Below, piece by piece: positions 40,001 through 41,362 of a stretch of 64,000 bases of DNA. This stretch comes from Escherichia phage LAMP: the sequence record MG673519.1; one strand, given 5' to 3'. Both the position numbers and the translations under genes were made by a program. Position 1 is the stretch's first letter. Each line of letters starts with the position of its first letter. The notes beneath the pieces are model-generated. The model made no database searches and was not told the DNA's origin. It saw only the letters and a list, made by a program, of their open reading frames with translations.

Positions 40001-41362
40001 TTAGTTATTTGTTTCTGTGTCAAAAGAGATTCCACGACCCGCTTCATCGGCAAACCGAACTGTACGGGTTTGAGGTTCTAATACTTCAGGGTTATTAGCA
40101 ACAAAGCGATCAGCGAGGCTGCGACTGACGGTCTCAGCAAGTTCCTCATGAGAAGGAATATCAAGACTACCTACCACATCTTGGGCCACACCTTCATCAG
40201 TCCACACAGCCCTAGCAGGTGCGTTGATATCACCAACAGCGAAACCCTGACCAGAGAACTGGTGACGGCTAACAGTCAAACCATTTGATTGACCATTAAA
40301 ACGTCTAGACAACCACCGCTCAAATGAATCGCCAGTAACACCAAGAGCTTCTTCAAAAGATGTTCTACGAGTAGAGCTTAGATTTCGTGACTCTTGTGCT
40401 CTACGTCTTGCAGGAATTGCAAACACCCCCTCAATTGCATTGTGCCGATTAGGTTCATCTTCCCGACCAAGGAGATCACCTCCTGTATTAGTTGTTAAGT
40501 TTGTTAACCCTTCAGACCAATATGCACTAATCTGGCTAGAGCCATGAATGCTTGACATTAACTGAATCTCTTCATAAGGTATATCAAAGAATCGACTCAT
40601 ATCTCGGTTAACACAATACTGAGCACTTGTTGTGTCCTCAATAAGAGCAACCTGACCCCGTTCGTTGACCAGATGACTAACCGGCTGAGGTGTGGGAAGG
40701 TGTCGAGTTTGGGCCATGTATTGATATGCAGCTGCTGGAGAGGAAAATCTCAACACTTGCGAGTTAGGCCACTTCTTGTGAACATACCTGATTTCACGAC
40801 TAGAAACAACCACTGGACAAGGGGCGGTCATAGCCAAGTATCCATGAGGGGTCATGAATAAGTTATCAAGAGTCATCGCACCACGGCACATCATAGGAAA
40901 ATTATCCAATACCTCTTCAATAGAAGTAGGATAATTAAACATGAATTGGATACGAACACCATTCCACTGAAACTCAATAATATCAGTGAATGTTAATTGA
41001 GAACCCCCAGCATATGATTCGTTCGTAGCTTCAACAAGAAGAGATGAATACTCAATATCTTGTGATTCAAGCCATTCCTTCACATTGCTTTCAATCTCCC
41101 GTCCAAGCATTTGCCACTGCTCGGCTGGGATAAAGGTATTTCGAGTTCTTGGTGTTTGTCCTCTGACAATAAAGATATCAATATCATGTGGAGCTATGTT
41201 ATTAAGAACAGCATCACGAATAGCTCCACCAGTAATGATAGGGCAAATACCATCTGGAATCAAGTTGTTGTTAATCAACTGTTCAATGAAGTGACGACCA
41301 ACAGTGATATCAGGTTGTTGAGCAACCTTATCTTCAATTCGGTTAATCGGGATAACAATCAT
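40001..41362 (-). CDS. class II nucleotidyltransferase (CCA-adding enzyme / poly(A) polymerase family)
   Basis: ITGGAIRDAVLNNIAPHDIDIFI matches the GGxxRD...DxD head-domain signature; start set at ATG one nt after the upstream stop. Confidence 0.55.
   Translation of the reverse strand: MIVIPINRIEDKVAQQPDITVGRHFIEQLINNNLIPDGICPIITGGAIRDAVLNNIAPHDIDIFIVRGQTPRTRNTFIPAEQWQMLGREIESNVKEWLESQDIEYSSLLVEATNESYAGGSQLTFTDIIEFQWNGVRIQFMFNYPTSIEEVLDNFPMMCRGAMTLDNLFMTPHGYLAMTAPCPVVVSSREIRYVHKKWPNSQVLRFSSPAAAYQYMAQTRHLPTPQPVSHLVNERGQVALIEDTTSAQYCVNRDMSRFFDIPYEEIQLMSSIHGSSQISAYWSEGLTNLTTNTGGDLLGREDEPNRHNAIEGVFAIPARRRAQESRNLSSTRRTSFEEALGVTGDSFERWLSRRFNGQSNGLTVSRHQFSGQGFAVGDINAPARAVWTDEGVAQDVVGSLDIPSHEELAETVSRSLADRFVANNPEVLEPQTRTVRFADEAGRGISFDTETNN

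Follow-up and report, generated by a model that had tools for sequence, protein, structure and literature searches.

Introduction

Gad2, a phage protein that defeats the Gabija defense system, is the one characterized member of the nucleotidyltransferase superfamily considered here. Its knockout renders phage SPbetaL7 sensitive to Gabija, AlphaFold predicted a nucleotidyltransferase domain, and anti-Gabija activity was reported for SPbetaL7 Gad2 as well as for a Brevibacillus homologue (bioRxiv 10.1101/2023.05.01.538930). Gabija and other defense systems act at DNA ends, and the mechanism of Gad2 was still unknown as of February 2026 (PMC12904381). In this study, we analyzed a nucleotidyltransferase gene of Escherichia phage LAMP within a window of 64,000 nucleotides (sequence record MG673519.1), which belongs to a Kuravirus (phiEco32-like, Gordonclarkvirinae) phage of E. 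coli with 97-98% identity to the BASEL phages Bas92-94 across the region of the gene:

40001-41362, minus strand: coding sequence of the nucleotidyltransferase (PHROG 12715), 453 amino acids (aa) plus stop codon, as given by the open reading frame (ORF) and its translation

An initial annotation, made from the sequence alone, had read this gene as a CCA-adding-enzyme-family nucleotidyltransferase and had linked it to a tRNA-Arg(UCU) gene of the same phage. Our profile and structure comparisons instead place the protein very probably in a phage-only superfamily composed of phrog_12715, phrog_1614 and Gad2, which would form a branch of the class II fold and in which the phrog_1614 enzymes of replication modules are the nearest relatives and Gad2 is a distant one. 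With regard to function, we tentatively favor a template-independent, replisome-associated nucleotidyltransferase with an accessory role, most likely in counter-defense. As far as the literature shows, the link to the Gad2 superfamily and the accessory, fast-evolving and replisome-embedded character of the enzyme are new. The gene and its label, in contrast, are already in databases, as GenBank records and PHROG 12715 carry the terms "nucleotidyltransferase" and "class II CCA-adding enzyme domain".

Results and discussion

A phage-only nucleotidyltransferase superfamily

Conservation counts, AlphaFold2 input and the family profile were all based on a set of 26 representatives of the family. 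Alignment of the family profile with a set of phrog_1614-type enzymes by hhalign (DU_RP_I, BB8, alia, Curvibacter phage P26059A, tf, a vibriophage and two metagenomic proteins) gave a probability of 99.1% with an expectation value (E) of 6.9e-19 over 148 columns, and the Kuravirus protein itself matched phrog_1614 across residues 35-216 (E 9.1e-8). The phrog_1614-type set in turn aligned with Gad2 at 98.0% (E 1.8e-13). Direct comparison of the family with an alignment of nine Gad2 sequences, which stem from supplementary tables published by Yirmiya et al. (bioRxiv 10.1101/2023.05.01.538930), reached 92.3% (E 5.5e-7) over 124 columns, with residues 41-198 of the query covering residues 27-161 of Gad2, and a single Gad2 sequence gave 58.7%. 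Within PHROGs, phrog_1614 was matched by both the Gad2 proteins and the Kuravirus protein, and the best non-orthologous folds in BFVD were phage nucleotidyltransferases of 170-200 aa (E 7e-7 to 3e-4, template modeling score to the target 0.45-0.62). It is because of these phrog_1614-type, Gad2, PHROGs and BFVD matches that we consider the superfamily assignment given above very probable. Precomputed Pfam annotations assigned PF26128 (Gad2) to 30 of 44 Kuravirus-type homologues, the match being marked 'weak' for protein P0004. A PF26128 match without this mark was present on P0097.

The family itself is small: when 1.84 billion representative proteins were searched exhaustively with the profile, just 32 clusters were recovered, many of them with proteins of 275-320 aa that end soon after the folded part. 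Word-indexed homologue searches returned Kuravirus-type proteins only, and a metagenome scan for the family led mostly to Kuravirus contigs again. The gene is carried by 97 phage records, and its product matched phrog_12715 across residues 1-453 (E 2.6e-262) in the PHROG search, with no match in NCBIfam and PADLOC scans. The orthologue of phage SU10 has been seen by mass spectrometry, with one peptide and about 7% coverage (PMC4281155). No characterized phage enzyme of this nucleotidyltransferase type was found in the literature.

The ORF runs on the minus strand from an ATG at position 41362 to a stop codon at 40001-40003. A longer version starting from a GTG at 41419 would be possible in principle and was rejected because all homologues start with MI(V/K)IP at the ATG, and because this ATG sits one base past the TAA of the upstream exonuclease gene.

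Domain architecture and conservation

The AlphaFold2 model, calculated with the 26 homologues, is folded to about residue 270-285 with a predicted local distance difference test score (pLDDT) of mostly 78-94, followed by residues 287-453 with a pLDDT below 50, which are predicted to be disordered. From the model and the column counts we distinguished the following parts:

40733-41362, minus strand: catalytic head, residues 1-210, with GGAxRD at 45-50, D60, D62, the putative third carboxylate D127 and the conserved residues Q139, D/E190, Y193 and K197
41168-41236, minus strand: motif A, residues 43-65 (ITGGAIRDAVLNNIAPHDIDIFI), the sole stretch that aligns by sequence with CCA-adding enzymes
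40493-40732, minus strand: small helical subdomain, residues 211-290, with helices at 209-218, 247-259 and 263-270 at a pLDDT of 66-78
40001-40492, minus strand: C-terminal tail, residues 291-453 plus stop codon, predicted disordered and rich in insertions and deletions

The catalytic motif GGAIRD...HDIDIF occupies residues 45-64, so that the class II nucleotidyltransferase signature which the initial annotation had recognized near the N-terminus (GGAIRDAVLNNIAPHDIDIFI, residues 45-65) was fully borne out. It is not a chance resemblance, as its seven signature residues are invariant in 26/26 representatives and the family profile matches a solved CCA-adding enzyme over this region at E 1.7e-4. 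The complete list of invariant positions comprises G45, G46, R49, D50, D60, D62, F64, Y117, Q139, Y193 and K197, while position 190 is acidic in every member and position 127, likely the third metal ligand, is D or E in 25 of the 26. Judged from these residues, the metal-binding set (G45-G46, D60, D62 and D/E127) is intact. The helical subdomain ends in a semi-conserved aromatic-S/T-x-G-L/R motif, represented here by YWSEGL at residues 281-286 according to the column counts. For the roughly 350 aa behind the signature, the initial annotation had seen no obvious match. This holds insofar as no tRNA-binding body is found there; in the model the region is, however, not uniform, being folded as far as residue 270-285 or so and then continuing as the tail predicted to be disordered (287-453).

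To compare the constraint on these parts, ratios of nonsynonymous to synonymous substitution rates (dN/dS) were calculated pairwise against four Kuravirus relatives. The head (residues 1-210) showed values of 0.08-0.17, indicating purifying selection, residues 211-290 gave 0.12-0.34, and the tail (residues 291-453) gave 0.27-0.50; the flanking genes ranged mostly from 0.00 to 0.10, with two outliers at 0.14-0.15. By these values, the head is constrained and presumably active, whereas the tail is only loosely constrained. Residues 1-272 are identical to those of the Bas93 protein, while the tail differs by a 38-aa deletion and many substitutions and retains conservation over its last ~35 aa (RFVANNPEVLEPQTRTVRFADEAGRGISFDTETNN). 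The tail is missing altogether from family members of ~280 aa. Based on the conserved catalytic residues, the dN/dS of the core and the detection of the SU10 orthologue by mass spectrometry, the protein is probably an active enzyme.

Replication-module context and evolution

The gene is part of a string of replication genes on the same strand, with the following neighbors:

41912-43702, minus strand: primase/helicase (T7 gp4-like), PF03796, in the same gene string
41364-41918, minus strand: DNA polymerase 3'-5' exonuclease subunit, PF01612, the upstream neighbor, with 1 nt between its stop codon and the nucleotidyltransferase ATG
39458-39991, minus strand: deoxycytidine triphosphate (dCTP) deaminase, PF22769, the downstream neighbor, which starts 9 nt past the nucleotidyltransferase stop

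The order is thus primase/helicase, exonuclease subunit, nucleotidyltransferase and dCTP deaminase, followed by a Dps/ferritin-like protein, thioredoxin, ThyX, PhoH and DNA polymerase, and it is kept in uncultured relatives with enzymes that are only 29-34% identical. An internal promoter or terminator in the block was considered and rejected, given that promoter- and terminator-like sites were no more common than in shuffled sequence.

The related small enzymes occupy comparable places in other lineages, adjoining primase or DNA polymerase genes in Autographiviridae, Stephanstirmvirinae and Curvibacter phage P26059A. The gene is flanked by those of primase and DNA polymerase in both Ralstonia phage DU_RP_I and Bordetella phage BB8, comes after DNA polymerase I in E. 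coli phage alia, and precedes the primase/helicase in Curvibacter phage P26059A. It follows a 5'-3' exonuclease gene in a Zobellviridae vibriophage and in Pseudomonas phage tf; the early module of tf is, however, largely common to phiEco32-like phages, so that tf is not a fully independent case. A different, nucleotide-metabolism context within the same superfamily was observed for P0097, a Gad2-family nucleotidyltransferase of 209 aa (L024 10001-12353; Joint Genome Institute (JGI) contig Ga0172420_10000563), which adjoins an AAA_28 ATPase and GTP cyclohydrolase I, with dCTP deaminase and phosphoribosyltransferase genes further along.

Two comparisons bear on the function of the gene. In Salmonella phage 7-11 the module is orthologous (56% identity for the primase/helicase, 49% for the exonuclease, 49% for the dCTP deaminase, 65% for ThyX and 70% for PhoH), with primase/helicase, exonuclease subunit and dCTP deaminase genes in unchanged order, and its exonuclease and dCTP deaminase genes are separated by a gap of just 185 bp (L118 14026-14210; NC_015938.1 52025-52209). 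This gap coincides with the site of the nucleotidyltransferase gene in Kuravirus phages and marks the point of its insertion or deletion. No homologue was present in the 42 kb of phage 7-11 examined, so that a replisome of this type can do without the enzyme. It is also by far the most divergent product of the block. In more distant Gordonclarkvirinae-type phages (L004, L005) it shows 33-37% identity compared to 81-95% for its neighbors, and in still more distant relatives 29-32% compared to 56-80%. Taken together, the nucleotidyltransferase is accessory and fast-evolving, with a hypervariable disordered tail. A recent foreign insertion of the gene was rejected, its GC content being within the local range and tandem repeats being absent.

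Several further observations were made in the surrounding region. The dCTP deaminase gene is mosaic, with 59% identity in the Kuravirus contigs L003 and L016 amid flanking genes of 97-100%, which points to replacement of the allele by recombination inside the replication module. The genes for ThyX, thioredoxin and the Dps/ferritin-like 'DNA binding protein' lie just downstream of it (37096-38901 of the window, minus strand), and the phage thioredoxin, a neighbor of a T7-like split DNA polymerase, may be a processivity factor. A group I catalytic intron (32473-32736, minus strand; Rfam RF00028, 100.8 bits, E 6e-25) interrupts the gene for the family-A DNA polymerase, its upstream exon ORF being 32725-34089, and the annotation of Bas93 joins its polymerase from two pieces that enclose an endonuclease VII ORF. 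An ORF of 173 aa (43895-44416, minus strand), flanked by the genes for the primase/helicase and a gamma-glutamyl cyclotransferase, resembles an HNH-type homing endonuclease by the look of its sequence, and it appears to be a mobile insertion because Bas93 has only a small hypothetical gene at that place. A cluster of amidoligase, COOH-NH2 ligase, glutamine amidotransferase, ATP-grasp and gamma-glutamyl cyclotransferase genes (45329-53785, minus strand) is also found in Pseudomonas phage tf (LUZ24-like) and Salmonella phage 7-11.

A tentative role at the replisome

We tentatively propose that the nucleotidyltransferase is made together with the replisome and would use nucleoside triphosphates (NTPs) or deoxynucleoside triphosphates (dNTPs), independently of a template, on a nucleic-acid 3'-OH that arises from phage DNA replication. 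This 3'-OH could be that of an RNA primer, of a nick or of the end of a genome or concatemer; alternatively, the enzyme may consume nucleotides in another way. Through its disordered tail it may be anchored to a partner. The role of the enzyme would be accessory and host-facing, and most likely consist in blunting a host defense that targets DNA and senses its ends, as Gad2 does with Gabija, while rebuilding of tRNA CCA ends would not be part of its function.

A number of points weigh against this proposal. The link to defense is one of remote homology (92% probability and a weak Pfam match), and remote homologues within the Pol-beta superfamily often differ in substrate. True Gad2 homologues of Vequintavirinae lie beside spanin and terminase genes, outside replication modules, and the SPbeta Gad2 lies in a dedicated anti-Gabija locus, so that the phrog_1614 and Kuravirus branch may do something different. 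Moreover, Gad2 is devoid of the RD of GGAxRD and possesses a different C-terminal domain. As the mechanism of Gad2 is unknown, the notion of an enzyme that works like Gad2 specifies no chemistry. Gene loss and fast evolution would equally fit a dispensable housekeeping helper, mosaic recombination takes place right next door (the 59% identical dCTP deaminase allele of L003 and L016), and nearness to replication genes is weak evidence in small phage genomes.

Such a housekeeping function, in which the enzyme would tail or trim RNA primers or DNA 3' ends for a T7-like replisome, for example during processing of Okazaki fragments or concatemer ends, and would have no part in counter-defense, is in our view unlikely. 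In its favor are the tight packing of the gene with the exonuclease subunit and primase/helicase genes, the repeated occurrence of related small enzymes next to genes for a primase, a DNA polymerase or a 5'-3' exonuclease across several phage families whose primase-helicases are of the gp4 type, and the presence of the gene in all 97 Gordonclarkvirinae-type records. However, phage 7-11 runs the same set of replisome genes without a nucleotidyltransferase, and the enzyme evolves several-fold faster than the replisome genes with which it would cooperate. In addition, class II enzymes act on RNA ends, with no replisome role known for any of them, and to our knowledge T7 has no such nucleotidyltransferase gene. 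If the enzyme were a plain replication helper, it would be of modest interest.

The favored counter-defense role could also be extended to the whole phrog_1614 clade of T7-type replication modules together with the Kuravirus enzyme, all of which would then be replisome-tethered counter-defense enzymes. By chemically altering the 3' ends of replicating phage DNA or its primers, or by making a nucleotide product, they would keep host nucleases that sense ends or nucleotides, such as Gabija, Shedu or Ppl, from engaging. We regard this generalization as improbable. If true, it would reveal the chemistry of Gad2 and would uncover a large and widespread class of enzymatic anti-defense genes that are now annotated as housekeeping. 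Kuravirus phages that plate on E. coli K-12 exist (BASEL Bas87-94). With them, the activity of Gad2-type enzymes becomes accessible to study in E. coli, as do the reasons for the marked insensitivity of Gordonclarkvirinae to host immunity that targets DNA.

Relation to poly(A) polymerases and CCA-adding enzymes

The structural model supports a class II Pol-beta fold of the type found in poly(A) polymerases (PAP) and CCA-adding enzymes, with CCA-adding enzymes as the best Foldseek matches in the PDB (E about 1e-4). The class II assignment of the initial annotation is thus backed at the level of the fold, while the likeness in sequence is confined to motif A, where GGAIRD at residues 45-50 and D60/D62 agree with class II CCA-adding enzymes. 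With the Pfam profile PolyA_pol, the protein scored 16.3 bits (E 0.012), i.e. below the gathering cut-off of 23 bits, and motif A alone was aligned. Matches at E <= 0.1 were obtained for 15 of the 26 members, the best E of 0.0012 being not significant, and the six family proteins with scores shown all remained below 23 bits (best 22.2). Searching the PDB with the 26-sequence family profile led to one solved CCA-adding enzyme (E 1.7e-4) over the N-terminal ~100 residues, again by motif A only, and a profile of six sequences returned noise only (polybromo and carbohydrate-binding modules, E >= 0.06). Alignment by hhalign with E. coli Cca or an enterobacterial Cca alignment reached a probability of 13-15% over about 57 columns (14.5%, E 1.9e-3 and 56 columns for the alignment), this control profile being low in diversity, as the contig scan with E. 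coli Cca had given Enterobacterales only, with at least 73% identity. PHROG 2244 'tRNA nucleotidyltransferase' matched at E 0.12 over 24 residues, compared to 9e-8 over 180 residues for phrog_1614. The initial annotation had named cyclic-nucleotide synthases and antitoxin-type nucleotidyltransferases as alternatives that would speak against its assignment; none of the CD-NTase, MNT antitoxin and MenT-type subfamilies was the best profile or fold match of the protein.

Class II CCA-adding enzymes recognize ribose through motif B (RRD) and select the base through motif D (EDxxR), which acts as an amino-acid template. In a pattern search of the first 260 residues, RRD was found in 0/26 family members. 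There was likewise no conserved match to EDxxR in the 26 members, a single ED..R at residue 266 of P0069 being attributed to chance. Pfam gave no match to PolyA_pol_RNAbd or tRNA_NucTran2_2 even at E <= 10, and the AlphaFold2 model contains no neck, body or tail tRNA-binding domain, as its head is followed by three short helices and 167 residues with a pLDDT below 50. Structure prediction therefore bears out the class II fold and leaves the protein without the body or tail domain of a CCA-adding enzyme.

These features bear on two further explanations. A PcnB-like activity that places poly(A) or another tail on transcripts of the host or the phage, or on RNAs that control replication, and so marks them for decay would be in keeping with the class II fold. 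We nevertheless consider it decidedly unlikely, as the neck, body and RNA-binding domains of PAP I are missing, the sequence likeness does not extend beyond motif A and the protein shows no sign of RNA binding.

A CCA-adding or tRNA repair enzyme, which would service the tRNA-Arg or counter host tRNA-targeting nucleases, appears very unlikely, in spite of the agreement of motif A with class II CCA-adding enzymes, the presence of a tRNA-Arg(UCU) in the phage and the use of this label by GenBank annotators. Besides the subthreshold PolyA_pol and PHROG scores and the missing RRD, EDxxR and RNA-binding domains, the C-terminus is predicted to be disordered and is absent from short homologues. The tRNA-Arg(UCU) gene itself, at 56850-56925 on the minus strand, is real, with ARAGORN and Rfam in agreement. 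It ends in ...GGGCGCACCA, so that its 3' ACCA, and with it the CCA, is encoded in the gene. Moreover, DU_RP_I and tf have related enzymes and no tRNA genes, and the E. coli host has its own Cca. The tRNA-Arg has been explained by the high AGA codon use of the phage (PMC9965538). We conclude that nothing ties the nucleotidyltransferase to the tRNA-Arg and that the CCA/tRNA interpretation of the gene is probably wrong.

Finally, a DNA modification pathway shared with the adjacent dCTP deaminase, which would yield a non-canonical nucleotide or base modification against restriction, is highly improbable, because ordinary deoxythymidine monophosphate (dTMP) synthesis is expected from the encoded ThyX (PF02511), the dCTP deaminase of phage 7-11 is retained although the nucleotidyltransferase is missing, some phages have related small enzymes that are not accompanied by a neighboring dCTP deaminase, and we know of no described base-hypermodification pathway that uses a class II-type nucleotidyltransferase. 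Genomes with deoxyuridine in place of thymidine or with 5-hydroxymethyldeoxyuridine were rejected as unlikely in view of ThyX. Gordonclarkvirinae are unusually resistant to restriction-modification, and the authors of the BASEL collection raised the possibility of DNA modification (PMC11990801).

Comparison with known systems

Compared to class II CCA-adding enzymes and poly(A) polymerase I (PolyA_pol, PF01743), the Kuravirus protein is thus distinguished by the absence of RRD, EDxxR and the neck, body and tail RNA-binding domains. A stand-alone 'CCA-adding enzyme head domain' has a precedent in NP_344798.1 of Streptococcus pneumoniae (PDB 2LA3), which is, however, bacterial and has no known link to replication or defense.

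Gad2 (PF26128; SPbetaL7 ORF159 and the Brevibacillus laterosporus homologue) shares GG, DxD-x-F, the Q strand, F(D/P)xx(C) and R...Y with the Kuravirus protein, and Gad2 homologues are found almost always in phages and prophages. Differences concern the motif GGxITS, which takes the place of GGAxRD, and the CCA-like FDFT(V/I)xMGA that Gad2 retains. The long forms of Gad2 possess a folded C-terminal domain of about 230 aa without counterpart in the Kuravirus protein, whose C-terminus is disordered and unrelated. As short Gad2 homologues of 214-278 aa are also devoid of this domain, it may not be a defining feature. In contrast to the Kuravirus gene, gad2 genes reside in an anti-defense locus or near lysis and terminase genes.

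The PHROG 1614 enzymes (for example Ralstonia phage DU_RP_I gp11, E. coli phage alia gp038 and Pseudomonas phage tf gp45) are smaller, with 190-310 aa, and do not carry the disordered tail of 170 aa. Their position in the module varies by lineage, and FD(I/L)G(I)C occurs where the Kuravirus family has FPMMCRG. Nevertheless, the match between them spans the whole catalytic head, with GGAxRD, DxD, the (I/F)Q(L/x)(M/I) strand, the F(D/P) motif and the R..(K)(Y/W)P region in common, and like the Kuravirus protein they are phage-only and usually encoded among replication genes.

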